Of a DNA stretch of 54,227 bases, positions 4,177 to 38,958 are shown piece after piece. Position 1 is the stretch's first letter, and each line of letters begins with the position of its first letter. Location of the stretch: assembly GCA_964372025.1 (NCBI GenBank), contig CAYJPF010000004.1:1-54227 (forward strand), read 5' to 3'. The DNA comes from an uncultured Peptococcaceae bacterium. GTDB lineage: Bacteria; Bacillota; Dehalobacteriia; UBA4068. A program made the position numbers and the translations under genes. The notes beneath the pieces are model-generated. The model did no database searches. It saw only the letters and a program-made list of their open reading frames with translations, and was not told the origin of the DNA.

Positions 4177-4211
4177 TATTTTAAATTTATCATAAATAAA
4201 GGAGCAAAAAA

Positions 4212-17816: not shown

Positions 17817-20800
17817 ATGTTTAGGAACCTTTTTTTAGTGGCCTTATTTTTGTGTACTCTTTTTTGGGGAGCAAGCTCTATAAGCAATATTGCTTATGCA
17901 CAGCAATTGCCAACGGCAGAAGAATTATCGGATATGAATATGGATCTGCTTAGGCAGCAAAACAATGGTGAATTGGCGCTATTAGCAGCACCGGCCTTAA
18001 AGGATAATATTATTACCGTCGGCTATAATGTAGGTGATAATATTATCGATCATCCTAATAATCCATCTAAAATGGGTTATGGCTATGAGATTTTAAAAAA
18101 AATTGAAGAGACTAGTGATTTAAGATTTGAGTTTGTAGAGCTGGAAAAAGATAGTTTTGAAGCATTAAGAAATGGCGAAATTGAATTAGCCGGCCTATTT
18201 TTTAATACAGATGAGCGAGAGGCCGAATTTGCCTATGCTCAAATTCCATTTAATGCTATTTTTATTACCCTTTCTACCAAGGATATGGATCATAATTTAC
18301 CCTATGGCGATCCGCAATCTTTAAATGGCAAAACAGTAGCCACTTATGAAGGCAATGCTGCCAATGCTATTTTAGATGATTATTTAAGGCTTAATAATAT
18401 CGAAGTAGAGTATATTATCAGCGATTTAGCCAATTATTTGAATGAGGAAGCCGATTTTTACTTAACTTTTTCGGCATCGCCCAATATCGAAAATCTTGAT
18501 TTTATTTTAAATTTAGGGCGCAAGCAAACATTTTTAGTAGCAAACCCCGAAAATCAGCAAATGCTTGATTTAATCGATCAGGCCATGCTTAAGCTGGTTA
18601 ATGAAGAAGGCTCATTTTTTTCCGAGCTGGAAACACACTACTATGAGCAAGTATTTCATAATATTCATCGCGATTTAACCTTAGAAGAAACAGAATTTAT
18701 TGAAAACAGAACATTTAGAGTAGGCTTTGTAGAAAATCATAATCCTTACAGCTATGTTGATGGAAGTGGCGAACCTAGCGGTGCAGTAGTAGAGTTAATA
18801 CAGCATATCAGCAGTATTTATGATTTTAATTTAGAGTTTATTCCTTATCGTTCAAAACTTGATGGCGGCAGTGGCCAAGCAGGTTATGATATTTTAATTT
18901 CGGCTTTGGGCGATTATACAACCGCTAGCGAAGAATATGATTTTACCCAATCATATTATGAACTGGATTTGGTAGCCATGGTGCCACAGCATATTTCGGA
19001 GCAATACCATACAGCTTCTGAAATTATTGATAATTCCCATAAAATTGGCATCTTGGATTATATGTATATTAGCGAATCTACGCTTAATCTAAATACAGAG
19101 TATCAGCAAATGAAAACGTATACAACTTTTGATGATTTGCTGGATGCTTATCAAAATGAAGAAATCGATATGGCGCTTTTTACCGAAAGTGGTATAACCT
19201 ATGCTAATGCCTATTTTGATGATAGTAATAATTATGTTTTTGCGCCCGGCTATGAGTTAAACTTTCACTTTGGCATATCCAAAAATATGCCCGAGCAAGT
19301 TTTGCCAATATTTAATATTATGTTCGATAATATAACCGATCGTAAATATGAAGATATTTTGGTTAGCCATACCTCGGTATTTTTCCCGGAATATTCCTTA
19401 TGGCAGTATCTGCAAAAATATTGGTATCATGGAATAATTATATTGGTACTAATTATCAGTATAATTGTTTTTAAGGCCTATCATGATCAAAAACGTAAAC
19501 GAATTATGATAGTAGAAGCCTATAATACCGATAGTTTAACCGGCCTTAAATCTAATGCTCTTTTCCTTAAAGAAGCAGCCGAAATTATCGAAAAGGCCCA
19601 GCCCGGCGAATATGAATTGATTAGCTTTGATATCGATATGTTCCGTTCGATCAATAATTATTATAGTGTAGAAACCGGCACGGCGGTAATTATCAGTATA
19701 GCCAGAGCCTTAGACGAGGCCTTTAAAGGGTCATCAACAATTTATGCCCGTGATGGCATCGATATATTTGCAATTTTAAGAAGAAAAGATGAAGGTGGCT
19801 CTTTACGCACAATCTATACTAATTATATTTTGCCTAAAATACAAGAGATAATTGGCGATCGCTATAATTTAAGTGCCTCTTTTGGCTATGTTATTATCGA
19901 GGATTGTTCCGAAAAATTAGTAAATCTTGCCGCCCATGCCGATGCAGCTCGTGTGTCCGGCAAAAAGAAACATAAAACTACTTTTATTCAATTCGATCAG
20001 GAAATGCGCGAGGCCTATAATAATAAGTTGCGCCTAACCTTTAGAATGGAACAAGCCATGAAAGATGGCGAATTTATGGTGCATTATCAGCCTAAAATCG
20101 ACCTGCTTAAAGATAAAATTGGCGGTGCCGAGGCCTTAATTCGCTGGTATCCTAAACTGGGTAAGCCAATTTATCCTAATGAATTTATCGGTGTTTTTGA
20201 AGAAAATGGCTTTATTGCAGCTATCGATTTATATGTGGTAGATCAGGTTGCTCGCTTTATTAAGGCTAATCAAAACAAAATCAAAATTCCGGTGATATCG
20301 GTAAACTTATCGGCAATTACGATTATGGAAAATAAGGTGGTAAGTGATATTATCCGCATTTTAGATTCGCATGGTGTAGAGCGTAATCGCATCGAAATCG
20401 AAATTACCGAAAGTGCCATTTTATCTTCCGAGGATAAATTCTTGATGGTTATCAATCAATTTAAAAAGGCCGGTTTTACAATTTCTTTAGACGATTTTGG
20501 CAAGGGGGTTTCTTCTTTAAACCGTCTTAGCAATATTGATGTAGATGTTTTAAAGCTAGACGAAGCCTTTATTGATATTAGCGAAAATGTCGAAAAAACC
20601 GCTATTGTGGTGCGTGATGTAATTTCGCTGGCCAAGCATTTAAAGATGAAAACCGTAGCCGAAGGTGTAGAAACTTATGAACAGGCTCGCTGGTTAAAAT
20701 TGCTTAATTGTGAGTATGCTCAGGGCTATTATTTTGCCAAACCCATGCCCGAAGAAGATTTTAAACAAGCACTTATTGCCGATAAGGATTATATTATCGA

Positions 20801-20819
20801 TAAAATGCAGGCTTCCTAA
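17817..20819 (+). CDS. membrane sensor: two periplasmic SBP-family-3-like domains, TM, degenerate GGDEF, EAL phosphodiesterase
   Basis: Signal peptide, then two ~230-aa solute-binding-like lobes and a TM helix (IIILVLIISIIVF). The GGDEF domain starts DSLTGLKSN but its active site reads RDGIDIF instead of RxGGDEF. The EAL domain keeps EALIRW, SVNLS, EITES, DDFGKG, KLD, AEGVE and QGYYFAKP. Confidence 0.85.
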   Translation: MFRNLFLVALFLCTLFWGASSISNIAYAQQLPTAEELSDMNMDLLRQQNNGELALLAAPALKDNIITVGYNVGDNIIDHPNNPSKMGYGYEILKKIEETSDLRFEFVELEKDSFEALRNGEIELAGLFFNTDEREAEFAYAQIPFNAIFITLSTKDMDHNLPYGDPQSLNGKTVATYEGNAANAILDDYLRLNNIEVEYIISDLANYLNEEADFYLTFSASPNIENLDFILNLGRKQTFLVANPENQQMLDLIDQAMLKLVNEEGSFFSELETHYYEQVFHNIHRDLTLEETEFIENRTFRVGFVENHNPYSYVDGSGEPSGAVVELIQHISSIYDFNLEFIPYRSKLDGGSGQAGYDILISALGDYTTASEEYDFTQSYYELDLVAMVPQHISEQYHTASEIIDNSHKIGILDYMYISESTLNLNTEYQQMKTYTTFDDLLDAYQNEEIDMALFTESGITYANAYFDDSNNYVFAPGYELNFHFGISKNMPEQVLPIFNIMFDNITDRKYEDILVSHTSVFFPEYSLWQYLQKYWYHGIIILVLIISIIVFKAYHDQKRKRIMIVEAYNTDSLTGLKSNALFLKEAAEIIEKAQPGEYELISFDIDMFRSINNYYSVETGTAVIISIARALDEAFKGSSTIYARDGIDIFAILRRKDEGGSLRTIYTNYILPKIQEIIGDRYNLSASFGYVIIEDCSEKLVNLAAHADAARVSGKKKHKTTFIQFDQEMREAYNNKLRLTFRMEQAMKDGEFMVHYQPKIDLLKDKIGGAEALIRWYPKLGKPIYPNEFIGVFEENGFIAAIDLYVVDQVARFIKANQNKIKIPVISVNLSAITIMENKVVSDIIRILDSHGVERNRIEIEITESAILSSEDKFLMVINQFKKAGFTISLDDFGKGVSSLNRLSNIDVDVLKLDEAFIDISENVEKTAIVVRDVISLAKHLKMKTVAEGVETYEQARWLKLLNCEYAQGYYFAKPMPEEDFKQALIADKDYIIDKMQAS

Positions 20820-20879: not shown

Positions 20880-21614
20880 TTATAATTTGATTGGCAATAA
20901 ATGATAATATTGGCTGCGGCGATTGATATTTGTTAATAAAGCAAGTTGATTTTTTTTATCCTCATATTTTTTTGCCAATAATAGGGCTTCGGCCAGATAA
21001 GCTTCGATTATTTTGTCATTGGCCGTAATTGCCTGTTTAGCCCAGTTTTGCCAAATATAAATATCCTTGGCCTCAAATAATAATTCTTGCTGCTCGGGTG
21101 CCAAAACCACAAAAGATGATGGCCTAGGCTCTGTGCTTTCTTCTACAATTAGGCCGTTTTCGCGGTAAATAAGTTTGGCTAAGGCGGCTCTTCTTAAAGG
21201 ATCTTGGCCATAAATATGCAATTGCTTAATTAAAGGTGCTAAAAATCGGGCGGCTAGGCAGCAGATGCTATCATCGGCATTTAAACTAAAACTATCCTTG
21301 CGCCAGCCGGGGCAATCATAATCCAAAGAATTTGGCAATACCGCCAGCGCATATAAGCGACCATTGGCTATACTAAGGGGCTGATTATTTACTTTGGCCG
21401 CCATTTGCGGCGCCATAGCCATTACACTACAGCCACTTTTAACAGCAGTTTTAAAACAGCGCTTTAAAGGGCCTGCTTTGGCAGCCCCGCTATAGGTAAT
21501 TACTTTTAAATTATAATCTTTAAATGGCCAAATTTCGATGCCTTCGCTTTTATAATTTTGTCTTAAAAGATTATTTCTGGTTTTTATTAAACCAATATCA
21601 GCCAGTTCCACCAT
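20880..21614 (-). CDS. hypothetical protein (244 aa), no recognisable motif
   Basis: Long ORF with SD AAAGGGG 7 nt before the ATG and codon usage like its neighbours. It shares the terminator at 20825-20870. I recognise no family. Confidence 0.6.
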   Translation of the reverse strand: MVELADIGLIKTRNNLLRQNYKSEGIEIWPFKDYNLKVITYSGAAKAGPLKRCFKTAVKSGCSVMAMAPQMAAKVNNQPLSIANGRLYALAVLPNSLDYDCPGWRKDSFSLNADDSICCLAARFLAPLIKQLHIYGQDPLRRAALAKLIYRENGLIVEESTEPRPSSFVVLAPEQQELLFEAKDIYIWQNWAKQAITANDKIIEAYLAEALLLAKKYEDKKNQLALLTNINRRSQYYHLLPIKL

Positions 21615-23901: not shown

Positions 23902-24561
23902 ATGAATATAAAAGAAATTCTAAGCAAAGTAGACCATACCCAATTAGCACCGGAAACCACCTGGCAAAACATCAAAGATTTATGCGATGATGCCCAAAAA
24001 TACCAAGTAGCAACGGTATGCATCCCGGCCAGCTATCTTAAGCAGGCCAAAGCTTATAGCAAAATTAAATTATGCACCGTAATTGGCTTCCCTAATGGCT
24101 ATTCGCTAACCGAAATTAAATGCGCCGAAGCCAAAGCCGCCATCAATGATGGCGCCCGAGAAATTGATATGGTTATCAATATCGGTGCCTTAAAAGACCA
24201 AAATTATCAACTGGTTCTGGAGGAAATCAAAGCGGTAAAAGCAACCTGCGCCGATCATATCCTCAAAGTAATCATCGAAACTTGCCTGCTAAACGACGCC
24301 GAAAAAATCAAAGCCTGCCAAATCATCAATGATTCGGGTGCCGATTTTATTAAAACCTCAACCGGCATGTCTAAAGGCGGTGCCACTTTTGAAGATATCA
24401 GCTTATTCAAAAAACATATCAACCCCAAGCTGGGCATTAAAGCAGCAGGCGGCATAGCAAGCTTAGCCGATGCCGAGCAATTTATCAAGCTGGGAGCTAG
24501 CCGCTTAGGCACCAGCCGCATTATCAAAATCCTTAAAAATCAAGGCGCAGAGGGCTATTAA
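23902..24561 (+). CDS. deoC: deoxyribose-phosphate aldolase
   Basis: 219 aa DeoC with blocks [32 protein letters not shown] and IKAAGGI. SD AAGGAG. Confidence 0.9.
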
Positions 24562-25790
24562 CTGCGAATTAAAGGCATAGTCATACAACGCGGGCCACCA
24601 CGCCCACGCGATAGTTCCGAGCTGGCAATTTTGATAACCTCGATATCGTTTTTCTCCAAAATGGCATTGGTAATGGTATTGCGATCATAAACCACCACCT
24701 TGCCGGGAGCGATGGCCAGGGTATTAGCGCCATCATTCCATTGCTCACGCGCGGCAGCCACCTGATCATTGCCGCCGCAAGGGATTAAAATGATACGCTC
24801 TAAATCCAAAATTTGCTTTAAAACCATGCTTAGATTTTCTCGATAATGCTCCACCCGATAGCGGCCGCTATCATCAATTTTATGCAGCCCATAAATTTGC
24901 AGACTATTTAATATGCCGGGATGAATGGTAAATTTATTAACGTCTACCTGGGTAAATACTGTATCCAGATGCATATAGGCCCGCAAATCGGGTATATCCA
25001 AAGCCAAAATAGTTGTTACCGAACTTAAAGGATTGCTAAATAAATTTTGAGCCAAAATTTCGATGGCTTCGGGGCAGGTTCTTTGCGATAAACCAATCGC
25101 CAAGACCTGCTCATTTAAATTTAAAATATCGCCGCCTTCGATGCTAAAAGGATTATCATTATCATAAAAAAGTGGCGTTTTTTGAGCATAATCGGGATGA
25201 TATTTAAAAATATAACGGCTAAAAATAGTTTCGCGGTTGCGGGTAAGGGCATGCATATGATTTAGGCTTACCCCCTGGCCAATGGCCGCAAAAGGGTCGC
25301 GGGTAAAGTATAAATTAGGGATAGGGGCGCAAATAAACTGCTGCTTATAATCGAGCCGCTCGCTTAAAATGCCCGGCTTTAAATCGGGAAAAAGCTTATA
25401 AAATTCCTCCAGGTGAATACCGCTCATTGTTTTAAAAACAAATTGACGGCAATCTTTAATATCGGCCAAAAACTCACTTAAATAAGGCTGATAATGGCGG
25501 GCAATATAGCCGGATTTATTAATAAATTCTTCGATAAACTGCTCTTTTACCTGCTGAGATTGGCTTAAAGCCTCGCAGGTTAAATCGGCTAAATAAACAG
25601 TTTGTGCGCCATGGGCGCTTAGGGCCTGGGCAAATTGATCATGCTCTTTTTGGGCAGCGGCTAAATAGGGGATATCATCGAATAATAATTGCTCTAGGGA
25701 ATCGGGAGTTAATTGCTCTAATTCGCTACCCGGTCGATGCAAAAGTACCTTTTGCAAGCTATTAATTTCGCTTTTAACATTGATAGTCAT
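24558..25790 (-). CDS. arcA: arginine deiminase
   Basis: 410 aa. N-terminus [15 protein letters not shown], then FTRDP, HLDTVF, and the C-terminal catalytic-Cys block [21 protein letters not shown]. Confidence 0.9.
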
Positions 25791-26873: not shown

Positions 26874-27085
26874 TTCTATAGTTTAGTTAGTTGCTTAAAT
26901 TATTATTTGCTGTAAAGCATCATATTTATTTAGCTTATATCAATATTATAACAGACTTTGGTTACATTTCGGTTACATTTTGCATTTTTTTTACATTTTT
27001 TTTATTAATTTGTTAATTTTTTTTGATAAACAAAAAAATGGCAAATTTTTGATTTAAAAAAATTAATTGTAAAGTAGATTAGTAC

Positions 27086-27114
27086 TTGCCAAAACGGCAT
27101 TTTTAGCGCATAAT
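27086..27114 (+). promoter_or_regulatory. putative promoter of the 27173-34346 operon
   Basis: TTGCCA (27086-27091), 17-nt spacer, CATAAT (27109-27114), in an AT-rich divergent intergenic region. Confidence 0.35.
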
Positions 27115-27172: not shown

Positions 27173-30100
27173 ATGGCTAAACAATTTGAGGTTTATATGT
27201 TTGCAAATTTACGGCAAGCGCTTTTTAAGCCGGAAGTTTTGGAACAGTTTAATATTAATAAGCGAGCTTGGCAATCATTATTAAAAGAAGATAATTGGTC
27301 GGAAATATTTAAAGACTTGGCAGCTAAAAATAATCGTTATAGCTGTGCCGAGGTTTTAGATTTGGCCAAAAATACCATGCAAAAATTAGCGCCAACCCCC
27401 CAGGAGGGCTGGTTGCGCTTTATTTATGATTATAATCGTAATTTACTTTTTCCGCAGAGCGAATTTGAACCCAGGGCTAAAGAATATGGCGATGCGGCCT
27501 TGTTTTACCTGGTATTATTACAGGTTTTATTAAATGAGGAAAAAAAATATATGCCCTTTGATTGGCGCATGGATTTTTGCTTTTTAAATGAGGATCAATA
27601 TTTAGCTACCGATACCGCCGAGGAATATCAATTATTGCTTAAATATTGGCAGCAAAATTTTGTTTATGAGCTATTACGCTTAACCGGCGAGGTTATGCCT
27701 TTTTGCACATTATCGCATATAGCCGGGGTGCATCATTTGGCAATTAGCTGCGCTTTAGATTTAAAAAATGCCGGGGCTAGCCTGGATTTAGCCTTAATTT
27801 CCGGTGCGGCCTTAACCCATGATATTGGTAAATATGGCTGTAAACCGCATGAAAAAGTGCCTTATTTACATTATTATTATAGCGATTTATGGTGCAATCA
27901 GCGAGCATTGCCCACAATTGGCCATATTGCGGCTAACCATTCTACCTGGGATTTAGAATTGGAATTATTAAGGGTAGAATCCTTATTCTTAATTTATGCT
28001 GATTTTAGAGTACGGGAGATTATCGAAGAAGATCAGCCACGGCAAATGATGATTTTGCCTTTAAAGAATGCCTTTGATGCAATTTTGAACAAATTAGATA
28101 GCGTGGATGAGTATAAATTGCAACGATATGAATTTGTTTATGCCAAATTGCATGATTTTGAGGTTTATTTAAGGCGCCGTGGTGTAAATGTGGAGTTAGA
28201 TAGCAAATTAAGGCCGATTTTGCCCTTAAATGATACTGCCTTAATGGATTATAATCAAGTTGTGGCGGCTTTAAAATATTTAAGTATTGATCATAATATT
28301 TCGCTAATGCATCATTTGGGCAGCGAACGGCTATTTGGTAATATCCTAGAAGCCGCGCGTGGCGAAAAAAATTGGAAGAATATCCGGGCTTATTTGAACA
28401 TTTTTGAAGAGTATTTTGCTTATTTAAATCAAGGCCAAAAAGTGCAAACCCTTAGCTTTTTATATGAATTATTAATGCATAGAGAAGGGGATATTAGGCG
28501 CGCGGCAGCCGGCTTAATGGGCCAAATTATTGCTAATTTTAATAAGGGCTATATTAAACAATTGCCGGATAGCGAGCAAATTCACCCTGCTAAGGAGCTT
28601 GCTTTAAATCTTTGGCAAAAATATTTGCATAGGGTAATTATTCCCGATCATAAACTAAGCAGCCAGCATAAAAGCTGGGTTGGCTATACTTTAAAAATAA
28701 TTATATCCTCGGTATTAGAATATTGCGAGCCTAATGAGCGTAGCATATATATCCAACCTTTAATGACATATTTTACCGATACCCATAGCCTACATGATAC
28801 CACTTCTTTTGTGCTTTTGGATGCGATGACTTATCTGCCTTTGGAATTATGCGGCGAAGCGGAATTAAGCCGTTTGAGTAATTTTGCCATTGATACGGTA
28901 AATCATCCTAATTTGGAATTAAGGGTGGCTGCTTTAAGGGTATTGCGGCGCTTGGCCGAGCTGGTTAAGGATGATAATTCCTCTTTGCCTCAAAGGCTAA
29001 AAGATTTTGCCCTTAATTTTGATGATCAGAATATCGATGCTTTAATCTTCCTTAAAAGACGAATGATGCGGGTTTTATGCTTGGATGATAGCTGCGCTAA
29101 TGAGCGCCTGGATAGTGGCGAAATCATTGCCGATATTTTCTTAGATAATCTTAAAACGGCTACACCTTGGATTATTAAGGCAATTAATATTAAGCTTTTG
29201 CTGGATAAGATTGAGAAAGGTAATCAGGAGCACTTATTGCATATTGCTGCCCATCTTTCTAATTTAATTAAGGTTAGCGAAAGGGTTGTGGTGCGCCATG
29301 ATGCCGGCCAGGCCTTGCTAAAGATTATCCCTTTGCTAACAATCGATCAAAGAAATGAAATTGCCGTTGAATTAACCAAAGGCTTAGAGGTGGGCGAATA
29401 CGAGTTTTCGAAGTATATTCCCGAATATTTAGGCCAACTTTTGCTTTATTTATCACCCGAAGAATTAGATGAAATGATTAAAAGGATTAATCAGCTGTTA
29501 AGCGGCAATAATGAGCGCATAATTTCGGTGGCTTTGGCCACAATCGGCATTATTGTGCAGGCTTATGATGGCTATTTAGCACGCTTTAATGAAACGCCGG
29601 CTCGCTATCAAAAACGCCTGGAAGTATTATTGGGCATGATTTTAAAAAGCCTGGCCAGCCATCATGATACGGTGCGGCAGGAGGCTTTATTGGTTTTGGG
29701 CAAAGGGGTTTTTGGTAATAATAAAATTTCCCTTAATGAAAAAAATAATATCTTTAATCTGATTTGCAAAAAAATGCTATTTTTAATTCGCGAAAATGAT
29801 GAAGATGAATTAACCTTTTATTATAGCTCGTCGGCACTTAATCATTTTTATCGCTTTATGGCCTTAAAAAGCATGGATAGCAGCCGCTTTAAGCAGCAAG
29901 CTAAACGCAAAATTGCCTTTTTTCCCGGCACTTTCGATCCTTTTACTTTATCGCATAAAGGTATTGTCCAGGAAATTTTGAATTTAGGCTTTGAGGTATT
30001 GCTTTCTTTAGATGAATTTTCCTGGTCTAAAAAAACGCAACCGCGCTTAATTAGGCGCCAAATTGCCTCGATATCGGTAGCAGATGAATTTAATGTGCAT

Positions 30101-32023
30101 ATATTTGATGATTCTTTGCCGGTAAATATCGCCAATAATGATGATTTAAAACGCTTATCAGCTGCCTTAGAAGGTCGTGAAATTTATATTGTGGTGGGCT
30201 CGGATGTGGTGCTTAATGCTTCGGCTTATACTAAGCCCCTTGCCGATTTTTCGATTCATAATTGGAATCATATTATCTTTAGCCGTGCCTCTAATACGGC
30301 TTGGCGGCCGGAAAATCATCATGCTTATCAGCAGATTAAGGGCGATATTATCGAATTATCTTTGCCAATGCATCTGGAAGATATCAGCTCTACCCGTATC
30401 CGGGAAAATATCGATAATAATCGTGATATTTCGCATTTGATTGATCCTGCTGCTCAGGAATTTATTTATTATCATAGCCTTTATTTGCGAGAGCCGCAAT
30501 ATAAGCCGGTTTTGCGCTCTAAGGCCATGCAGTTTAACTATTTTGCTGATTTAGATCAAGCTTTAATCGAGCAATTATTAAGGCAAATCGATTGCAGTGA
30601 TCATCATTTTGCAAATCTAGCTGCCAATTTAGCAAGTAAAAATAATCAGGCGCTGATGATTAGTTTAGGCGATAATCAGCAGCAAGCTTTAGGGATTATC
30701 TTTATGCGCATCATTAATAGCTCGGATTTATATGAGCAATTACATGATATCCGCTTGGCCGATTTAATTCGCAAAAAAGCCAATGGGCGTATTCTTTTAA
30801 TCAGTGGCGCCTTATTTTGCGAGGATATCGAACAAGATAATAATATACAGCTATTATTAAACGAAGCCTTAGCGATGGCTTTGGCAGATAATTGTATTTT
30901 TGGTATTTATAATCCGGCAGCCAATATTTTAAGCAGCCCTTTAATCCAGCATAATCTGGAAAAGCAAGGTTTTAACAAAATTAGCGGCGGCCATGGGCTT
31001 TATACGGTAAATATGCATGAACCGCTAGTATTAATTCAAAACCTGGAAACTTCTATTAAAGAGCCTTTGGCTTCCAATCCGCAAGTAATTGCGGCCACAC
31101 GCAAGGCGCATCATCGCCTGCAGCTGGCCTTAAATAATTTATTTCCCGGTAATTTAGTGCTTTCTTTGGCGGCATCTACCATTCATCAAAGATTAATGGA
31201 GGAAATTACCGGCATCAATCAGGTTTCGATGCAACAAAGCATGCCACGCAAGCTGGGCGATTATATGTGTGTGCCTTTTGGCAAAATGCTGCGGGGCAAG
31301 GTTGTGCCCAATACTGTAACAAAAACCCTGCATACGGATAAAGTGTATAACCCCGATATTAGCCAAAGCACTATTCAGGCTTATCCTTATTATTCCAAGC
31401 TATCTAATCAGATTAGAACCATTAGCTCTTTTCAGCGGCAAATCATTTTAGTGGATGATATTTTACATGCAGGCGATAGAATGATTGCCCTCGACCCTTT
31501 ATTTAAAGCCGGAGATTTGGATATAAAAATGGTTTTAGTGGGGGTATTATCCGGTTATGGCCGCGACTTAATGGCTGTTAAAGGCTATGATACTAAAGGC
31601 GTTTATTATGTTCCTACTATTAAATATTGGTTTGTGGAATCTACCCTTTATCCATTTATCGGTGGTGATACTATTAAGCGCGAAGGCTTGCCCATTTTTG
31701 GCCTTTTGCCTTCTATTAATATGGTTTTACCCTATGCCGCCCCATTTTTTGCCAAGGATTGCTCGGGTCAGGCCATTTATGATTTTTCGCTTACTTGCTT
31801 GGAAAATGCTCGCGATTTATTCTTAACCTTAGAGGCCGAGTATCGCAATATGTTCGAGCGTAATTTATCCTTAAGCCGCCTATCCGAGGCAGTAATCTTG
31901 CCGCTTTGCCCGGATAAAGGCAGCTGCCTCAGCTACGACCCATCATTAAGTGTATCCACTTATTTAGAAAATGATATTGAAATGATAATCCGTAATAAAA
32001 ATGTTATAGTTAGGGAGGGCTAA
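27173..32023 (+). CDS. 1616-aa multidomain protein: HD phosphohydrolase + HEAT-like repeats + NadD/CoaD-type nucleotidyltransferase + GNAT-like segment + type I phosphoribosyltransferase
   Basis: Uninterrupted 4.85-kb ORF. Motifs: LTHDIGKYG and IGHIAANH (HD); HEAT-like repeats such as NLELRVAALRVLRRL; FFPGTFDPFTLSH plus ISSTRIREN (nucleotidyltransferase); QIILVDDILHAGDRM (PRPP loop). Confidence 0.85.
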   Translation: MAKQFEVYMFANLRQALFKPEVLEQFNINKRAWQSLLKEDNWSEIFKDLAAKNNRYSCAEVLDLAKNTMQKLAPTPQEGWLRFIYDYNRNLLFPQSEFEPRAKEYGDAALFYLVLLQVLLNEEKKYMPFDWRMDFCFLNEDQYLATDTAEEYQLLLKYWQQNFVYELLRLTGEVMPFCTLSHIAGVHHLAISCALDLKNAGASLDLALISGAALTHDIGKYGCKPHEKVPYLHYYYSDLWCNQRALPTIGHIAANHSTWDLELELLRVESLFLIYADFRVREIIEEDQPRQMMILPLKNAFDAILNKLDSVDEYKLQRYEFVYAKLHDFEVYLRRRGVNVELDSKLRPILPLNDTALMDYNQVVAALKYLSIDHNISLMHHLGSERLFGNILEAARGEKNWKNIRAYLNIFEEYFAYLNQGQKVQTLSFLYELLMHREGDIRRAAAGLMGQIIANFNKGYIKQLPDSEQIHPAKELALNLWQKYLHRVIIPDHKLSSQHKSWVGYTLKIIISSVLEYCEPNERSIYIQPLMTYFTDTHSLHDTTSFVLLDAMTYLPLELCGEAELSRLSNFAIDTVNHPNLELRVAALRVLRRLAELVKDDNSSLPQRLKDFALNFDDQNIDALIFLKRRMMRVLCLDDSCANERLDSGEIIADIFLDNLKTATPWIIKAINIKLLLDKIEKGNQEHLLHIAAHLSNLIKVSERVVVRHDAGQALLKIIPLLTIDQRNEIAVELTKGLEVGEYEFSKYIPEYLGQLLLYLSPEELDEMIKRINQLLSGNNERIISVALATIGIIVQAYDGYLARFNETPARYQKRLEVLLGMILKSLASHHDTVRQEALLVLGKGVFGNNKISLNEKNNIFNLICKKMLFLIRENDEDELTFYYSSSALNHFYRFMALKSMDSSRFKQQAKRKIAFFPGTFDPFTLSHKGIVQEILNLGFEVLLSLDEFSWSKKTQPRLIRRQIASISVADEFNVHIFDDSLPVNIANNDDLKRLSAALEGREIYIVVGSDVVLNASAYTKPLADFSIHNWNHIIFSRASNTAWRPENHHAYQQIKGDIIELSLPMHLEDISSTRIRENIDNNRDISHLIDPAAQEFIYYHSLYLREPQYKPVLRSKAMQFNYFADLDQALIEQLLRQIDCSDHHFANLAANLASKNNQALMISLGDNQQQALGIIFMRIINSSDLYEQLHDIRLADLIRKKANGRILLISGALFCEDIEQDNNIQLLLNEALAMALADNCIFGIYNPAANILSSPLIQHNLEKQGFNKISGGHGLYTVNMHEPLVLIQNLETSIKEPLASNPQVIAATRKAHHRLQLALNNLFPGNLVLSLAASTIHQRLMEEITGINQVSMQQSMPRKLGDYMCVPFGKMLRGKVVPNTVTKTLHTDKVYNPDISQSTIQAYPYYSKLSNQIRTISSFQRQIILVDDILHAGDRMIALDPLFKAGDLDIKMVLVGVLSGYGRDLMAVKGYDTKGVYYVPTIKYWFVESTLYPFIGGDTIKREGLPIFGLLPSINMVLPYAAPFFAKDCSGQAIYDFSLTCLENARDLFLTLEAEYRNMFERNLSLSRLSEAVILPLCPDKGSCLSYDPSLSVSTYLENDIEMIIRNKNVIVREG

Positions 32024-32025
32024 TT

Positions 32026-33264
32026 GTGAAATATTATAGCTTTAATGATATGATTTTTGGATCATTTGAAGATTTGGATTTACCGCAGATACCGGAGCCG
32101 GAAAAAAGGCCGAATTTTATGCTTTATCAAAGAGATATTGCTAAAAATAAAGCCGCTTTTGCCCTAACTGATATCGGCCAAATTCGCCCTGATAGCCAAG
32201 AGAGCCATCATTGGCTTAATCGTAGCCGCTTGCAAGCAGGGGAGTTTTATGATGCCAAGCTGGCCGCCTATTTAGCAGAAGGGCCACTAAAAGCTATTAA
32301 TATCAATCATCCCTCTTGGCAAAGAATAGCACTTGCTTATCCAATTAATCATTCGCGGCGAGTAAATATTATTGCCTTGGGCGATGTGGGCGCTACCATG
32401 TTAATGGGCTTGCGGCTTTTAGGCGGCGAAGTAATCAGCAAAATTGGCATTTATGATCTTAATCAAAAAAATGCCGAGCGTTATGAGTTTGAGATGAATC
32501 AAGTTATCGATGGCCATGATTATGATACCCTGCCCCCGGTAGAGGTGATTAATGAGGAGCAAATATTTGATTGCGCGGTGCTGATTTTTTGCGCAGCTGC
32601 CAATTTGCCGCCGGTAGATAGCCAGGTTAAGGATGTACGCATGGCTCAATTTGCGGCTAATCGTAAAATTATCGGCGAATATGCGCGTAAAGCCAGAAAA
32701 GCCAAATTTATGGGCTTTTGTTGTGTAGTTAGTGATCCGGTTGATTTATTATGCAAAGAATTATTTACTGTATCCAATACCAATGAACAGGGCGAGTTTG
32801 ATGGCTTGGGGATTAGGGCTGAATTTATTCAAGGCTATGGCTTAGGGGTTATGAATGCCCGTGCTGCCTATTTTGCCAAAAAAGATAGCCGCTTTAGCTC
32901 GTTTTTAACTGAAGGCCGAGCCTTTGGGCCCCATGGCAATGATTTGATTATTGCCAATTCGATTAATAATTATAATCATGATTTATCCTTAGAATTAACA
33001 GCCAAAGCGGTAACTGCCAATATGCAAATGCGTAAACTGGGCTTTAAGCCATATATTGCGCCGGCTTTATCCTCGGCTGCTTTAGCAATTATCCGCACTT
33101 TAGGTGGTAAGTGGCAATATAGCTCGGTATTTTTAGGCGGCATTTATATGGGCTGCAAAAATCGCTATTTATATCAAGGTAATCAAGTAGAATGCCTGCC
33201 TTTGCCCGATAAACTATATCAAAGAATAGAGGAGGCGGCGCATAATTTAGCCCAAATTAATTAA
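32026..33264 (+). CDS. L-lactate/malate dehydrogenase-family oxidoreductase with ~100-aa N-terminal extension
   Basis: GTG start 3 nt after the upstream stop, with SD GGGAGGG. Rossmann INIIALGDVGATMLMG, then VSDPVDLL, GVMNARAAYF and FGPHGND (catalytic His context). Confidence 0.8.
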   Translation: MKYYSFNDMIFGSFEDLDLPQIPEPEKRPNFMLYQRDIAKNKAAFALTDIGQIRPDSQESHHWLNRSRLQAGEFYDAKLAAYLAEGPLKAININHPSWQRIALAYPINHSRRVNIIALGDVGATMLMGLRLLGGEVISKIGIYDLNQKNAERYEFEMNQVIDGHDYDTLPPVEVINEEQIFDCAVLIFCAAANLPPVDSQVKDVRMAQFAANRKIIGEYARKARKAKFMGFCCVVSDPVDLLCKELFTVSNTNEQGEFDGLGIRAEFIQGYGLGVMNARAAYFAKKDSRFSSFLTEGRAFGPHGNDLIIANSINNYNHDLSLELTAKAVTANMQMRKLGFKPYIAPALSSAALAIIRTLGGKWQYSSVFLGGIYMGCKNRYLYQGNQVECLPLPDKLYQRIEEAAHNLAQIN

Positions 33265-34480: not shown

Positions 34481-35929
34481 TTGGACAAAAATAAGCAAAG
34501 TTATGCACCTATCAAAGAGGCTTTGCAGCATTTTTCGGAATTAAGGGTTGTGCCCTTTGATGTGCCCGGCCATAAAAGGGGCAAAGGTAATGATGAATTA
34601 AAAGCATTTTTAGGCGGCAAATGCCTGGAAATGGATGTAAACTCGATGAAGCCTTTGGATAATTTGGCGCATCCGGTTTCGGTTATTTATGAGGCAGAAG
34701 TTTTGGCCGCCCAGGCTTTTGGCGCAGGCCATGCCTTTTTTATGGTTAATGGTACTACTGCGGCTGTGCAAAATATGCTCTTTTTTAGCTTGCGGCGTGG
34801 CGATAAAGTTATTTTGCCGCGTAATGTTCATAAAAGCGTGGTTAATGCCCTGATTATTACCGGGGCTATTCCGGTTTATGTTAAGCAACCCTTGCATCCA
34901 AGCTTGCATATATCCCTAGGGATGCAGGTGGAGGAGGTTAAAAAGGCCATTGCCGAGCATCCCGATGCCAAGGCGGTTTTTTGCAATAGCCCTACCTATT
35001 ATGGTATTTGCTCCGATTTAAAAACAATAGCCCAATTGGCGCATCAGGCCAATATGCTGCTTTTAGTGGACGAGGCTCATGGCACCCATTTTAATTTTGG
35101 CGAGGGTTTTCCCATTTCGGCCATGGCAGCCGGTGCCGATTTAGCGGCAATTAGCATGCATAAATCGGGCTGCTCTTTAACCCAAAGCGCCTTTTTATTA
35201 AGTGGCCCCAATATCGATAAAGAGGCTTTGCGCCAAACCATCAACTTAACCCAAACCACCAGCGCCTCTTATTTATTGCTGGCCTCTTTGGATATTTCGC
35301 GCAAGAACTTGGCCTTAAATGGTCGCCAAATTTTTGAGCATGTTAAGCAAATGGCCTGCTATGCGCGGGAGGAAATTAATAAAATCGGCGCTTATTATGC
35401 CTATGGTGCCGAATTGATAGATAATGATACCGTCTTTGATTTTGATTTAAGCAAGCTAGCGGTAGCCACCGCCGGCAGCGGTTTATCAGGCATGGAAGTT
35501 TATGATATTTTGCGTGATGAATATGATATCCAAATCGAATTTGGCGATATTTCCAATATTTTGGCCTATATTTCGGTAGGGGATAAAGAGCAGCATATCG
35601 AGCGCTTAGTAGGCGCTTTAGCCGAAATTGCCCGCCGTTTTAGCAAAGAAAAACGCGAACTTTTACTATATCCTTTGCCCCAAACCTTAGTTGCTATTAG
35701 CCCGCAGGAGGCCTATTATGGCGCAAAAGTTTCGGTGCCAATTGAGCAAACCATAGGCAAAATTATGGGCGAGATAGCCATGTGCTATCCACCCGGTATC
35801 CCAATTTTAGCGCCCGGCGAATTAATCAATGCCGAGGCTATCGAGTATATTCGCTATGCTAAGGAAATTGGCTGCTCGATTATCGGCACCCATGATCCGG
35901 AAGTAAAACATTTAGCGGTTTTGAGGTGA
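34481..35929 (+). CDS. speA: Orn/Lys/Arg decarboxylase family, likely biosynthetic arginine decarboxylase
   Basis: 482 aa, fold-type I PLP decarboxylase like B. subtilis SpeA. PLP-Lys context SMHKSGCSLTQS. TTG start 8 nt after AGGAGG. Followed by speE and speB. Confidence 0.8.
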   Translation: MDKNKQSYAPIKEALQHFSELRVVPFDVPGHKRGKGNDELKAFLGGKCLEMDVNSMKPLDNLAHPVSVIYEAEVLAAQAFGAGHAFFMVNGTTAAVQNMLFFSLRRGDKVILPRNVHKSVVNALIITGAIPVYVKQPLHPSLHISLGMQVEEVKKAIAEHPDAKAVFCNSPTYYGICSDLKTIAQLAHQANMLLLVDEAHGTHFNFGEGFPISAMAAGADLAAISMHKSGCSLTQSAFLLSGPNIDKEALRQTINLTQTTSASYLLLASLDISRKNLALNGRQIFEHVKQMACYAREEINKIGAYYAYGAELIDNDTVFDFDLSKLAVATAGSGLSGMEVYDILRDEYDIQIEFGDISNILAYISVGDKEQHIERLVGALAEIARRFSKEKRELLLYPLPQTLVAISPQEAYYGAKVSVPIEQTIGKIMGEIAMCYPPGIPILAPGELINAEAIEYIRYAKEIGCSIIGTHDPEVKHLAVLR

Positions 35930-35933
35930 TTTT

Positions 35934-36785
35934 ATGGATTTATGGTTTTCGGAATATCATACAGATAATGTGCGCCTATCAATTAGGGTAGACGAGCATT
36001 TATACACTTCGCAAAGCCTGTACCAGCGTATTGATGTATTTTCCTCGCCCGATTATGGCCGCTTTTTAACCTTAGACGGATATATGATGCTAACCGAAAA
36101 GGACGAGTTTATTTATCATGAAATGATGGCTCATGTGCCGATGGCAGTGCATCCTAATGTTAAAAAGGTGCTGCTAATCGGGGCAGGGGATGGCGGCACG
36201 GTGCGCGAAATTTTGCGCTATAATACCGTAGAACATATCGATTTGGTTGAAATTGATAAAGAAGTGATGGATGTATGTCGCAAATTCTTACCTTTTACGG
36301 CCGCCGGTTTAGATGATGAGCGGGTAAATATTCATGTAGAAGATGGTATGCGTTATGTACGCAGGGTTAAGGATTTTTATGATTTGATTATTGTTGATTC
36401 CACCGATCCTTTTGGCCCCGGCGAAGGCCTTTTTTCCAAGGAATTTTATGGTAATTGCTATAAGGCCTTAAACGAAAATGGGATTATGGTTAATCAGCAG
36501 GAAAGCCCTTTTTATCATAAGGATGCCTTAGCTGTGCAAAGGGCGCATCGTAATATTGTGCAATCATTCCCGTTTAGCATGGCTTATCAGGCGCATATCC
36601 CCACCTATCCCTCGGGATTATGGCTATTTGGCTTTTCGTCTAAAAATTATCATCCCCTGCGCGATTTTAGGGAGCAGGCCTGGAAAGATTTAAAAATTAA
36701 AACCCGCTATTATAATACTCAATTGCATCGGGGCGCTTTTGCCCTGCCCAATTATGTGGAAGATTTATTAAAAGGAGTAGAATAA
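35934..36785 (+). CDS. speE: spermidine synthase-family aminopropyltransferase
   Basis: N-terminus LWFSE, then GAGDGGTVRE, DLVEID and VDSTDPFGPGEGLF, the hallmarks of SpeE. Confidence 0.88.
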   Translation: MDLWFSEYHTDNVRLSIRVDEHLYTSQSLYQRIDVFSSPDYGRFLTLDGYMMLTEKDEFIYHEMMAHVPMAVHPNVKKVLLIGAGDGGTVREILRYNTVEHIDLVEIDKEVMDVCRKFLPFTAAGLDDERVNIHVEDGMRYVRRVKDFYDLIIVDSTDPFGPGEGLFSKEFYGNCYKALNENGIMVNQQESPFYHKDALAVQRAHRNIVQSFPFSMAYQAHIPTYPSGLWLFGFSSKNYHPLRDFREQAWKDLKIKTRYYNTQLHRGAFALPNYVEDLLKGVE

Positions 36786-37648
36786 TGCTAAAAAGTAAAC
36801 ATGCTACTTTTTTTGATTGCGGCACTGATTATCAGGCTGCTGATATTGTAATTTTTGGTGCACCTTTTGATTCGACAACTTCTTTTAGGCCGGGCACCAG
36901 ATTGGCGGCTGCCACCATGCGCTTAGAAAGCTTTGGCTTAGAAACTTATAGCCCCGATTTGGATTTGGATTTGGCCGATTACAGCATCTGTGATGCCGGT
37001 GATTTAGAATTGCCTTTTGGCAATAGCGAGCAAGCTCTGGACTTAATAGCTGAGCAGGTTAGCCAAATTGCTGCTGATCATAAAATCCCGTTAATGATAG
37101 GCGGCGAGCATTTAGTAAGCTTAGGGGCGATTAAAGCTTTGCATCAAAAGTATCCCGATTTGGCGATTATCCATTTTGATGCCCATACCGATTTGCGCGA
37201 GGCTTATTTGGGGCAAAGCTTATCCCATGCCTCGGTAATGCGCCTGGCCTGGCAATTGCTAGGTGATGGCCGAATTTGGCAATTTGGTATACGTTCCGGC
37301 GAGCGGCAGGAATTTGAATTTGCTGCTAAACATACCCATTTATGCGCCAATAATTTCGACGATTTGGCTTTGGCAATTGGCCAAAATCAAAAGCGCCCGA
37401 TTTATCTAAGCATAGATTTAGATATCCTAGACCCATCCTTTTTCCCGGGCACAGGCACGCCGGAGGCCGGCGGGGTTTGTGTGCATGCCTTATTTGCGGC
37501 GCTAAAAGATTTAAGTGGGCTAAATATTATCGGTTGCGATATCAATGAATTAGCCCCCAATTATGATTTAAGCGGAGCATCAACGGCGGTTGCCAATAAG
37601 GTATTGCGTGAATTATTGCTAAATCTGTTAAAAAATAAGGAGGATTAA
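36785..37648 (+). CDS. speB: agmatinase-family ureohydrolase
   Basis: Arginase-fold Mn ligand blocks IHFDAHTDL, LSIDLDILDP and GTPEAGG. TAATG overlap with speE. Confidence 0.88.
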   Translation: MLKSKHATFFDCGTDYQAADIVIFGAPFDSTTSFRPGTRLAAATMRLESFGLETYSPDLDLDLADYSICDAGDLELPFGNSEQALDLIAEQVSQIAADHKIPLMIGGEHLVSLGAIKALHQKYPDLAIIHFDAHTDLREAYLGQSLSHASVMRLAWQLLGDGRIWQFGIRSGERQEFEFAAKHTHLCANNFDDLALAIGQNQKRPIYLSIDLDILDPSFFPGTGTPEAGGVCVHALFAALKDLSGLNIIGCDINELAPNYDLSGASTAVANKVLRELLLNLLKNKED

Positions 37649-37649
37649 A

Positions 37650-38855
37650 ATGGCGAAGATTATGATTATCGGTGCAGGTGGCGTGGCTAATGTGGCTGCC
37701 CATAAATGTGCACAAAACAGTGATGTTTTTGGGGAAATGATGATAGCCAGCCGTACCAAATCAAAATGTGATGATATTAAAAAGGCTATCGAGGCTAAAG
37801 GCACTAAAACCTTAATTACTACGGCTCAGATTGATGCCGATGATGTAGCTGCTTTAACTGCCCTTTTAGAGCAGGAAAAGCCGGCTTTGGTATTAAACTT
37901 GGCCTTGCCTTATCAGGATTTACCGATTATGGATGCCTGCTTGGCCGCCAAAATTAACTATATGGATACCGCCAATTATGAGCCGCCGGATCAAGCCAAA
38001 TTTGAGTATAGCTGGCAATGGGCTTATAAAGAGCGCTATCAACAAGCCGGGATAACCGCCCTTTTAGGTAGTGGTTTTGATCCGGGGGTAACTTCGGTTT
38101 TTGCAGCTTATGCCTTAAAGCATCATTTTGATCAAATTGATTATATCGATATCTTGGATTGTAATGGCGGCGATCATGGCTATCCTTTTGCTACCAATTT
38201 TAATCCCGAGATTAATATTCGTGAAGTTAGCGCCAAGGGCAGCTATTGGCAAGATGGCGCCTGGGTAGAAACCGAGCCGATGGAAATTAAACGCGAATAT
38301 AATTTCCCGGAAATTGGCCAAAAAGATATGTATTTGCTGCATCATGAGGAAATTGAATCCTTGGCAATTAATATACCGGGCGTAAAAAGAATTCGCTTTT
38401 TTATGACTTTTGGCCAAAGCTATTTAACCCATTTGCAATGCCTGGAAAATGTAGGCATGACCTCCATCGAGCCAATTGATTATGAGGGCAAGCAAATTAT
38501 CCCCTTGCAATTTTTAAAAGCGGTTTTGCCGGATCCTTCATCTTTAGGGCCACGTACCAAGGGCAAAACCAATATTGGCTGCATTTTCCAAGGCCAAAAA
38601 GATGGCAAGCCAAAAACTTATTATATCTATAATGTTTGCGATCATCAGGAATGTTATCAAGAGGTTGGCTCGCAGGCGGTATCTTATACCACCGGTGTGC
38701 CGGCCATGATTGGGGCGATGATGCTAATGCAGGGCATTTGGCAAGGCCCCGGCGTATTTAATATCGAAGAATTCGATCCCGACCCATTTATGGAGCAGTT
38801 AAACCGCTGCGGCCTACCCTGGCAGGAAAGTTTTAATCCCGATTTAGTAGATTAG
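37650..38855 (+). CDS. saccharopine dehydrogenase-family carboxy(nor)spermidine dehydrogenase/synthase
   Basis: 401 aa with Rossmann IMIIGAGGVANV and GSGFDPGVTSVF. Adjacent to carboxynorspermidine decarboxylase. SD AAGGAGG. Confidence 0.82.
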   Translation: MAKIMIIGAGGVANVAAHKCAQNSDVFGEMMIASRTKSKCDDIKKAIEAKGTKTLITTAQIDADDVAALTALLEQEKPALVLNLALPYQDLPIMDACLAAKINYMDTANYEPPDQAKFEYSWQWAYKERYQQAGITALLGSGFDPGVTSVFAAYALKHHFDQIDYIDILDCNGGDHGYPFATNFNPEINIREVSAKGSYWQDGAWVETEPMEIKREYNFPEIGQKDMYLLHHEEIESLAINIPGVKRIRFFMTFGQSYLTHLQCLENVGMTSIEPIDYEGKQIIPLQFLKAVLPDPSSLGPRTKGKTNIGCIFQGQKDGKPKTYYIYNVCDHQECYQEVGSQAVSYTTGVPAMIGAMMLMQGIWQGPGVFNIEEFDPDPFMEQLNRCGLPWQESFNPDLVD

Positions 38856-38862
38856 ATTATAT

Positions 38863-38936: not shown

Positions 38937-38958
38937 GATCTTTAAAAAGGAGGCCAAA

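Follow-up and report, generated by a model that had tools for sequence, protein, structure and literature searches.

What does a bacterial cell do with a single polypeptide of 1616 residues in which five modules are joined? The question is raised by one gene in a 54,227-nucleotide stretch of DNA from an uncultured Peptococcaceae bacterium (GenBank assembly GCA_964372025.1, contig CAYJPF010000004.1, positions 1 to 54,227; hereafter the window). A first-pass annotation, made from the sequence without database searches, had described the product (hereafter the giant protein) as a fusion of an HD phosphohydrolase, a HEAT-like scaffold, a NadD/CoaD-type nucleotidyltransferase (NT), a weakly called GNAT-like segment and a type I phosphoribosyltransferase (PRTase). 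Fold and profile searches supported this five-module architecture. We propose, at a probability of about 35%, that the giant protein is a dedicated nucleotide-handling enzyme, separate from the housekeeping NAD pathway, which makes and hydrolyses a dinucleotide. The folds, the conservation of catalytic-type residues and the linkage of the gene to two redox genes are established; from these we infer the substrates, the order of the steps and any complex.

The gene was confirmed as one uninterrupted ORF (open reading frame) of 4.85 kb, with an ATG at 27173 and a stop codon at 32021-32023. An in-frame stop at ~27158 precedes the first in-frame start, GAAAGGG is the ribosome-binding site upstream of the ATG, and the GC content is even along the ORF. 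The first-pass annotation had named an assembly chimera as a possible refutation. This idea, like that of a fused annotation of separate genes, was prompted solely by the length, and it retains next to no likelihood. Among 5.8 billion proteins searched there were more than 7500 matches, the best 120 of which were all 1596-1646 aa long at 98-100% coverage, and uninterrupted ORFs were found in 85 independent loci; together with the even GC content, these full-length homologues refute a chimera. The relatives come from many assemblies, including contigs of more than 3 Mb. The closest one, encoded in the same gene order in assembly GCA_964368605.1, is 93% identical and the next 54%, which indicates that the organism of the window belongs to the Clostridia but has few sampled kin.

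The family is widespread. Residues 881-1616 matched 661 clusters of a library of representatives at 50% identity, 226 of them below E 1e-30 and mostly ~1600 aa long, and at least 580 stretches of a species-level genome collection encode a relative. The hosts include Oscillospiraceae (Oscillibacter, Dysosmobacter, Lawsonibacter, Vescimonas), Lachnospiraceae, Clostridium fessum, Anaerovorax, Hominibacterium, Anaerotignum and Peptococcaceae; Clostridium symbiosum (like C. fessum one of the Lachnospiraceae), Anaerotruncus and the Anaerovoracaceae likewise carry the giant gene, and isolated metagenome-assembled genomes labelled Flexilinea and Spirochaetes also encode a relative. The names given to relatives go no further than 'cytidyltransferase-related domain protein' or 'nicotinic acid mononucleotide adenylyltransferase' and are generic or probably wrong. 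The unusual nature of the fusion, pointed out at the outset, was borne out: the searches found no characterised protein, model or paper with such an architecture, no dedicated Pfam or NCBIfam model and, apart from structures that resemble the NadD-like domain taken alone, no solved structure.

The giant protein was modelled as two halves by AlphaFold2 with family alignments, and both were predicted with high values: a pLDDT (predicted local distance difference test) of 92 and a pTM (predicted template modelling score) of 0.91 for residues 881-1616, and 91 and 0.87 for residues 1-900. Conservation was counted over 49 diverse homologues, 26-48% identical. Near-invariant columns made up 13-16% of the HD, NT and PRTase-like domains and 3% of the GNAT-like segment. 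All motifs quoted in the first-pass annotation were present within a few bases of the positions given there, and judged by these alignments they exceed chance, being conserved columns of the family. Features of the gene and its surroundings are listed in Table 1.

The strongest call among the five domains was the NT domain. Pfam PF01467 matched at 22.8 bits, above its gathering score of 21, and the NadD models of NCBIfam matched the giant protein at E 4e-9 and 27 of 30 relatives at a best value of 1e-18. Searched by sequence against the PDB, the giant protein alone drew only marginal PPAT and NMNAT matches. With a family profile, human NMNAT1/3, bacterial NadD and PPAT were recovered, NMNAT rising to the best value of E 1e-6, and no significant HD, GNAT or PRTase match was obtained. 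The 50 matches listed by Foldseek for the C-terminal half against the PDB were all NadD/NMNAT structures, with E values down to 2e-8, target-normalised TM (template modelling) scores of 0.6-0.82 and 16-23% identity. The first NT motif, FFPGTFDPFTLSH (aa 916-928, nt 29918-29956), contains PGTFDPFTLSH, for which the family form is PGTFDPF-(S/T)-L-(S/G)-H. F921 was invariant (49/49), D922 was present in 47 and H928 in 42 homologues (Gln in 6); the position of the first His of HxGH is Ser or Thr, and that of the Gly is Ser in 26 and Gly in 20 of the 49. The T-L-S-H of the giant protein reads as a variant motif, closest to the T-x-G-H of PPAT. The second motif, ISSTRIREN (aa 1071-1079, nt 30383-30409), follows the conserved ISSTxIR pattern, with R1077 in 47/49. 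Eight residues after a GxD element lies Y1019, which is at least 90% conserved and which, from a comparison by eye, we take to occupy the position of the pyridine-stacking Trp of NadD.

These best matches, from both hidden Markov models (HMMs) and structures, would fit a housekeeping or paralogous NadD, a nicotinic acid mononucleotide (NaMN)/NMN adenylyltransferase, that has acquired regulatory appendages, and JGI and NCBI do name relatives 'nicotinic acid mononucleotide adenylyltransferase'. The equivalog test failed, however, at 36 bits against cut-offs of 112-150 (TIGR00482, NF000840). The low identity to NadD structures, the Ser or Thr in place of the first His, the frequent Ser in place of the Gly and the Tyr in place of the stacking Trp also speak against it. 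The NT motifs have decayed in whole lineages, which is unexpected for an essential NadD, and an addition of 1400 residues and two conserved redox partners would have no role in the synthesis of NaAD (nicotinic acid adenine dinucleotide). We consider this reading improbable; the domain is NadD-like, not NadD itself. A search with an HMM of the NT domain found no second NadD-like gene in the window or in the related loci, the rest of the genome lying outside this search. In one related locus (L095), a canonical 159-aa CoaD-type cytidylyltransferase-like gene (4002-4481), preceded by an rsmD-like methyltransferase gene, lies ~500 nt upstream of a variant of the giant family, so the giant's NT domain is not the sole PPAT-like enzyme of that organism.

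At the C-terminal end, the PRTase-like domain has a type I fold that has diverged strongly and comes closest to the purine PRTases. The 'classical PRPP-binding loop' of the first-pass annotation (PRPP, phosphoribosyl pyrophosphate) was recovered as QIILVDDILHAGDRM (aa 1423-1437, nt 31439-31483). What held of this claim was a conserved DD dyad (D1428 in 47/49, D1429 in 44/49), a conserved Gly (G1434, 42/49) and R1436 (46/49), in a family consensus VILVDDLLHKGxR. The word 'classical' did not hold, since the core IILVDDILHAGDR misses PROSITE PS00103 by one residue, an H where [STAVD] is required. A second strongly conserved loop reads CVPFGK..PNTVTKTLHTDK, in the family form CVPFGK..PNTVTKxLHTEK, and further conserved elements were T1383, Q1413, ESxLYPFIGGD, PSINxILPY and E1554. 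The strand-loop-helix around VDD in the AlphaFold2 model fits the PRTase core fold. Foldseek searches of BFVD returned Hpt (E 2.4e-3, probability 0.99), UMP synthase (7e-3, probability 1.0) and a PRTase-domain protein (1.4e-2, probability 0.96); it was this database that revealed the PRTase and GNAT matches, the PDB lists being filled by NadD for the C-terminal half and by HEAT proteins for the N-terminal half. Among 30 relatives, weak matches were seen to PF00156 (7, best 1e-3), APRT (10, 1e-4), archaeal HPT (6) and HGPRT (3), and hhalign aligned the C-terminal profile with an HGPRT-like protein encoded at a related locus (L088) over the PRPP loop only, at a probability of 7%. From the model and the Foldseek matches, the PRTase core fold is assigned with moderate support. 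This bears on the NAD-type sequence of PRTase, NT and HD reactions envisaged by the first-pass annotation. Its NT step agrees with a NadD/NMNAT-like domain, and its PRTase step is at odds with a type I, purine-like domain. To our knowledge, all nicotinate, nicotinamide and quinolinate PRTases are type II.

Between these two domains lies the GNAT-like segment, the least conserved folded part of the protein. The weak call proved right as to fold: the order of secondary structure in the AlphaFold2 model (beta-alpha-alpha-beta-beta-beta-alpha-beta-alpha-beta) fits GNAT, and Foldseek matched several viral GNAT proteins in BFVD (E 2e-3 to 2e-2, probability at least 0.99, target TM score up to 0.72). 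The acetyl-CoA motif A (Q/R-x-x-G-x-G/A) was absent between the fourth strand and the next helix, where the columns are variable, and the Pfam GNAT models matched none of the 30 relatives. Acetyltransferase activity is unlikely.

In the N-terminal half, the peptides HIAGVHHLA (aa 182-190), LTHDIGKYG (aa 214-222; nt 27812-27838, where 27817-27840 had been given), IGHIAANHSTW (aa 249-259) and LIYADFRV (aa 273-280) supply the H...HD...(H)...D metal-binding motif. Its residues H182, H216, D217, H256 and D277 were retained in 45, 46, 45, 46 and 45 of the 49 homologues, respectively. With 14.4 bits (E 0.047), the giant protein stayed below the Pfam HD (PF01966) cut-off of 22, and 16 of 30 relatives were matched at E<0.1, the best at 3e-4. 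The NCBIfam model for DVU_1551, an NT-HD protein, matched the giant protein through its HD half at E 5e-6 and also matched 20 of the 30 relatives. The YqeK (COG1713) model matched neither the giant protein nor any of the 30; the HD-type NCBIfam models that did match were only DVU_1551, TIGR00295 and HDIG. In profile searches of the PDB, 1xx7 was matched weakly (E 0.07-0.23), over the H..HD helices only, and a sub-profile of the HD region gave nothing significant. The region is helical in the AlphaFold2 model, and the 50 Foldseek matches listed from the PDB for the N-terminal half were all HEAT/ARM solenoids. On the grounds of motif and conservation, we accept residues ~141-345 as a divergent HD domain.

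The solenoid that follows reached exactly the gathering score of Pfam HEAT (23.5 bits), with matches in 14 of the 30 relatives. Foldseek aligned it with PP2A-A, CAND1, importins/karyopherins and designed ARM proteins at E ~5e-5. Two polar residues, H694 and R708, are invariant and a block NLKxATPW is conserved; the solenoid is thus more than a passive spacer.

The first-pass annotation had also suggested surveying the two genes downstream, and their co-occurrence with the giant gene was clear. Among 73 non-redundant loci with at least 2.6 kb of downstream sequence, both partner genes were present in 63, one in 3 and none in 7; gene 1 follows the giant gene in 66 and in 59 of these starts less than 1 kb from its end. 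The genes further out vary between loci, and all-versus-all clustering of the ORFs of 88 loci revealed no conserved neighbour beyond the two partners, a fourth cluster consisting of antisense ORFs. The giant gene, the dehydrogenase gene and the flavoprotein gene form a three-gene unit.

Gene 1 starts 2 nt past the stop of the giant gene and encodes a divergent LDH/MDH-like protein with a 105-aa N-terminal extension. Pfam Ldh_1_N matched at E 1e-5 (26 bits against a cut-off of 27), the NCBIfam L-LDH model at E 4.5e-6 and, with a family profile, LDHs in the PDB at E 4e-4. GxGDVG (G119-D-V-G122), D144, R205 and H303 are invariant, the last two presumably corresponding to R109 and H195 of LDH, to which we likened them by eye. 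Gene 2 starts 17 nt after gene 1; it matched Pfam FMN_red (PF03358) at E 2e-13 and, weakly, the FMN-dependent azoreductase YhdA in the PDB. Four Cys residues (C213, C216, C221 and C230) are invariant and spaced CX2CX4CX8C, a spacing similar, not identical, to the CX2CX2CX5-7C motif published for Isf, the iron-sulfur flavoproteins of anaerobes (PMC3164229). From this Cys pattern the product of gene 2 resembles an Isf-like Fe-S flavoprotein. A preprint's proposal that Isf acts as a dipicolinate synthase was judged irrelevant to the giant's family.

Two sets of neighbours were noted beside the unit in some loci. In one group (L002, L003, L006, L007 and ~10-16 other loci), a rubrerythrin gene and a Fur/PerR-family gene lie just upstream, and on the downstream side there are genes for glutamate dehydrogenase and a glutamate symporter as well as for a histidine kinase with a YcbB-type response regulator. 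As glutamate dehydrogenase, the YcbB-type two-component system, the symporter, rubrerythrin and Fur recur in just 9-16 related loci, these neighbours may represent lineage synteny rather than functional linkage. At an HD-less locus (L088:12884-17088), the three-gene unit is followed by a gene for a 976-aa BcrAD_BadFG + DUF2229 'CoA-enzyme activase' and then by a second DUF2229-like gene. Such proteins are ATP-dependent electron-activating proteins of anaerobes, and they were seen at this one locus only.

The Isf-like partner could point to an alarmone system, in which, by analogy with RelA/SpoT and GlnD, where HD and synthetase parts are likewise combined, the NT domain would make an Ap4A-like dinucleoside polyphosphate (Ap4A, diadenosine tetraphosphate) or a related signal, the HD domain would degrade it, the purine-PRTase-like domain would serve as nucleotide sensor, and the flavoprotein would tie the system to redox stress. 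The HD domains found with NadD hydrolyse Ap4A/Np4A, adenine and hypoxanthine PRTases are the nearest matches of the PRTase-like domain, and in ~10 loci rubrerythrin and Fur/PerR-family genes lie just upstream. Yet the YqeK family model itself found no match, and only a minority of related loci have the stress-gene neighbours, which may simply reflect synteny. We know of no NadD-type enzyme that acts as an Ap4A synthase. An alarmone maker and breaker has, in our view, a low likelihood.

Natural variants of the family show which modules can be lost. A motif survey took in 110 representatives no shorter than 1000 aa, and in 59 of them all three motif sets, those of HD, NT and PRTase, were intact. 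The start of the 1180-1310-aa representatives corresponds to about residue 335-400 of the giant protein, so that they are without the HD domain; those of 1050-1100 aa additionally lack an alignable GNAT-like segment. Two HD-less proteins (P0193 and P0222, 27-31% identical) still have Ldh_1_N and FMN_red genes directly downstream. Three others (P0238, P0243 and P0215) have no redox partners and are preceded by a gene for a PPDK_N ATP-grasp protein of 860-895 aa, these upstream genes being mutually orthologous. This sister subfamily of 1065-1228 aa (L090:4426-10198, L093:3317-9303, L094:3-5377) has no HD domain and often a degenerate NT motif; its genes overlap the end of the PPDK_N gene by 4-8 nt, and the PPDK_N protein has unassigned N- and C-terminal regions. 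The two genes together appear to make up a conserved unit distinct from the three-gene one. A substitution of the HD part by the PPDK_N partner was considered and rejected, no homology being detected between them.

The PRTase-like elements, more universally conserved than any other part of the family, stayed nearly unchanged in distant variants with a degenerate NT domain. Judged by the alignments, the constant core of the family is HEAT plus PRTase-like; the NT domain is usually intact, the HD domain accessory and the GNAT-like segment dispensable. A fixed three-step pathway of PRTase, NT and HD reactions therefore cannot be universal, since lineages have lost the HD domain, the GNAT-like segment or the NT residues.

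This pattern brings forward the main rival explanation, that the giant protein is a ligand-sensing scaffold whose HEAT and PRTase-like core binds a nucleotide or a PRPP-type ligand and controls or assembles partner enzymes (the LDH-like protein and the flavoprotein in one subfamily, the PPDK_N enzyme in another), the NT, GNAT-like and HD domains being mainly ligand-binding or accessory. PurR and PyrR are PRTase-fold regulators and provide a model. No variant lacks the HEAT or the PRTase-like domain, which holds for none of the others: variants of 1050-1300 aa have no HD, GNAT-like is absent or unalignable in several and NT is degenerate in many. In addition, the partner genes switch between subfamilies, the invariant H694 and R708 suggest a specific binding site in the solenoid, the GNAT-like segment has no acetyl-CoA motif, and the PRPP loop reads HKGxR instead of the catalytic (S/T)(S/T)GxT. 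The variant data favour such a scaffold; the strong conservation of catalytic residues argues against it, since the HD, NT and PRTase-like residues are strongly conserved in the giant protein and most of its 1600-aa relatives, and the invariant T1383, Q1413 and E1554 look like an active site. A scaffold is possible, and on this balance doubtful.

We return to the nucleotide-handling enzyme that we favour. The PRTase-like domain would bind a ribose-5-phosphate compound, or may form one from PRPP and a base. The NadD-like domain would adenylylate a 5'-phosphate with ATP, giving a pyrophosphate-linked dinucleotide, and the HD domain would hydrolyse that dinucleotide or off-pathway analogues, as in NadD-YqeK fusions. 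Where an HD domain is fused to NadD or encoded in a cluster with it, it cleaves NaAD analogues and Ap4A (PMC9426524). The HEAT solenoid would hold the modules together and probably dock the two redox partners, and the GNAT-like fold may be structural or regulatory. This scheme is consistent with the AlphaFold2 confidence, the NadD fold and HMM matches, the conserved NT motifs, the DD dyad and the HD metal ligands, and also with an operon linkage that shows gaps of 2 and 17 nt, holds among differing flanks and persists in HD-less variants of 25-30% identity.

Several observations weigh against it. No characterised homologue or known substrate was found, and a literature search with the NCBI name, the domain combination and DVU_1551 gave nothing. 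The giant protein has no PF00156 match, PS00103 is matched by just 3/49 relatives, and sequence searches of the PDB with a profile of the last 300 aa drew no significant match. Some variants pair with the PPDK_N ATP-grasp protein and not with the two redox genes, and many distant ones have Asp or Gln for the catalytic His of the NT domain and Lys or Gln for R1077. One clade of five full-length proteins (P0188, P0208, P0219, P0220 and P0242; 1515-1591 aa) has lost both the HD and the NT motifs and keeps the PRTase-like motifs, with R1436 changed to Glu. Judged by these residues, NT and HD catalysis is not universal in the family. The loss of the two motifs is correlated (Fisher p 6e-6); as the five proteins are each other's nearest relatives, it is probably a single event and was not counted as independent evidence. 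Finally, the dinucleotide scheme leaves the roles of the dehydrogenase and the flavoprotein unexplained. At the locus of one member of the clade (P0219; L096:5001-9776), neither an LDH-like nor an FMN_red gene was seen nearby and a radical SAM gene follows.

A broader version can be imagined, in which strictly anaerobic Clostridia possess an undescribed pathway that builds a non-canonical dinucleotide, a new cofactor or signal. PRPP and a base would be condensed and the product adenylylated, the HD domain would proof-read or turn over the dinucleotide, its modification or use would fall to the LDH-like protein and the Fe-S flavoprotein, and the sister subfamily would work with an ATP-grasp dikinase-type partner. 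This extension is speculative and rather unlikely as it stands.

Whichever reading holds, the family abounds in the gut Clostridia of humans and animals, thousands of metagenome proteins matching it, and the cell devotes 4.9 kb of coding sequence to a protein in which three modules keep catalytic-type residues. Its chemistry, once solved, might turn out to be an unrecognised nucleotide or cofactor reaction, or else a new regulation of redox enzymes in anaerobes, and a correct function would mend a widespread mis-annotation that distorts reconstructions of the NAD pathway of gut bacteria. Clear experimental handles are offered by the conserved three-gene unit and by variants that have lost domains naturally.

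Table 1. Positions, strands and supporting evidence of the giant gene, its domains, its partners and other features of the window
Feature	Position (nt)	Strand	Basis or context
Whole ORF, 1616 aa + stop	27173..32023	+	Full-length homologues
Promoter-like TTGCCA-17-CATAAT	27086..27114	+	59 nt upstream of start codon; consensus scan
N-terminal helical cap, aa 1-140, poorly conserved	27173..27592	+	All-helical in AlphaFold2 model; no column at 90% conservation
Divergent HD phosphohydrolase domain, ~aa 141-345	27593..28207	+	Motif conservation, sub-threshold HMM matches
HEAT/ARM-type alpha-solenoid, ~aa 346-900	28208..29872	+	Pfam HEAT, AlphaFold2, Foldseek
NadD/NMNAT-type HIGH-superfamily NT domain, aa 905-1112	29885..30508	+	Pfam, NCBIfam, PDB profile, Foldseek
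GNAT-like fold + linker helix, ~aa 1119-1325	30527..31147	+	AlphaFold2 topology, Foldseek BFVD
Divergent type I PRTase-like domain, ~aa 1326-1535	31148..31777	+	Foldseek BFVD, weak HMM matches in relatives
C-terminal helical extension, aa 1536-1616, invariant S1539 and E1554	31778..32020	+	AlphaFold2 model, alignment
Gene 1: putative divergent LDH/MDH-superfamily NAD-binding dehydrogenase, 412 aa, GTG start	32026..33264	+	Pfam, NCBIfam, PDB profile
Gene 2: FMN-reductase-type flavodoxin-fold domain + 170-aa N-terminal domain, 354 aa	33282..34346	+	Pfam FMN_red
Arginine deiminase gene	24558-25790	-	Upstream of giant gene
Orn/Lys/Arg decarboxylase	34481-35929		Polyamine operon
Spermidine synthase	35934-36785		Polyamine operon
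Agmatinase-type arginase-family protein	36785-37648		Polyamine operon
Saccharopine-dehydrogenase-type protein, probably carboxy(nor)spermidine dehydrogenase	37650-38855		Polyamine operon
Orn/DAP/Arg-decarboxylase-fold protein, probably carboxy(nor)spermidine decarboxylase	38908-40083		Polyamine operon

Upstream of the giant gene, the promoter-like element is a candidate promoter by consensus match, and it is kept upstream of the 93%-identical gene (locus L001). The AT-rich 300-nt region between a divergent sortase gene and the giant gene also contains, at 26958-26997, a direct repeat, CGGTTACATTT, twice in tandem and followed by a third copy, TTACATTTT. This repeat could be a putative regulator-binding site; it is kept in L001 (3295-3335), conservation being uninformative at such an evolutionary distance. 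When a riboswitch or RNA leader was sought, no Rfam family reached threshold anywhere in the window, and PADLOC assigned neither the giant protein nor its two partners to an anti-phage defence system.

The 54-kb surroundings are ordinary core chromosome of a Gram-positive anaerobe, with smc, ftsY, pyrD, greA, lysS, deoC, arcA, a sortase gene and a polyamine operon, as well as fmt, rsmB, rlmN, a PASTA kinase gene (prkC), rsgA, xseA and ispA. A plasmid origin was rejected on this ground and after a megablast search of PLSDB gave nothing. The polyamine operon (34481-40083) lies directly downstream of the three-gene unit, and both known spermidine routes appear to be encoded side by side in the window. 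Further upstream, 17817-20819 encodes a 1000-aa protein with a periplasmic-type solute-binding domain (SBP_bac_3), GGDEF and EAL, a probable ligand-sensing c-di-GMP turnover protein, and the minus strand carries at 20880-21614 a 244-aa ORF without a Pfam match at E<=1e-5.

How does the giant protein compare with known systems? Its five modules belong to known superfamilies; their combination, the redox partnership and the ATP-grasp-coupled sister subfamily are not described in the sources searched. With canonical NadD/NMNAT enzymes (8aii, 3e27, 1kku) it has in common the fold, matched at TM scores of 0.7-0.8, the GxFDP..H and ISSTxIR motifs and a GxD-x7-aromatic element. It differs from them in its 16-23% identity, in T-L-S-H for H-x-G-H and Tyr for Trp, in the embedding of the NT domain in a 1616-aa protein and in the loss of catalytic residues in some lineages. 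With type I purine PRTases (APRT, HGPRT) and PurR/PyrR it has in common a hydrophobic strand, the DD dyad and a Gly-containing phosphate loop, Hpt and OPRT being matched at the level of the fold, and differs from the enzymes by HKGxR for (S/T)(S/T)GxT, by its own invariant loop PNTVTKxLHTEK and by an 80-aa helical tail.

Precedents for an NMNAT-type domain fused to nucleotide-handling or GNAT-like modules are NadR (HTH + NMNAT + RNK), NadM-Nudix and CitC (GNAT-like + HIGH nucleotidyltransferase). These have no HD, HEAT or PRTase-like modules, their order and partners differ, and no sequence match to them was obtained. RelA/SpoT and GlnD have a similar layout, with an HD hydrolase and a transferase in one chain and C-terminal ligand-binding domains. 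The likeness is one of analogy, not membership: their transferases have a Pol-beta-type fold, whereas that of the giant protein is of the HIGH Rossmann type, and no sequence or fold match was seen.

The NadD-YqeK fusions and operons of Firmicutes and mycoplasmas (JCVISYN3A_0380, PRK07152) and the NT-HD protein DVU_1551 (NF045665) likewise combine a NadD-type NT and an HD domain in one polypeptide. In the characterised NadD-HD case, the HD domain cleaves the pyrophosphate bond of NadD products or analogues and of Ap4A (PMC9426524). These proteins have ~360 aa in the order NT-HD, whereas the giant protein runs from HD through a 550-aa HEAT region to NT, GNAT-like and PRTase-like; its scores lie far below the cut-offs, YqeK gives no match, the first His of HxGH is Ser or Thr, and the operon partners are others. 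By sequence, the HD region of the giant protein is matched by the corresponding half of NF045665 and the NT region by PRK07152.

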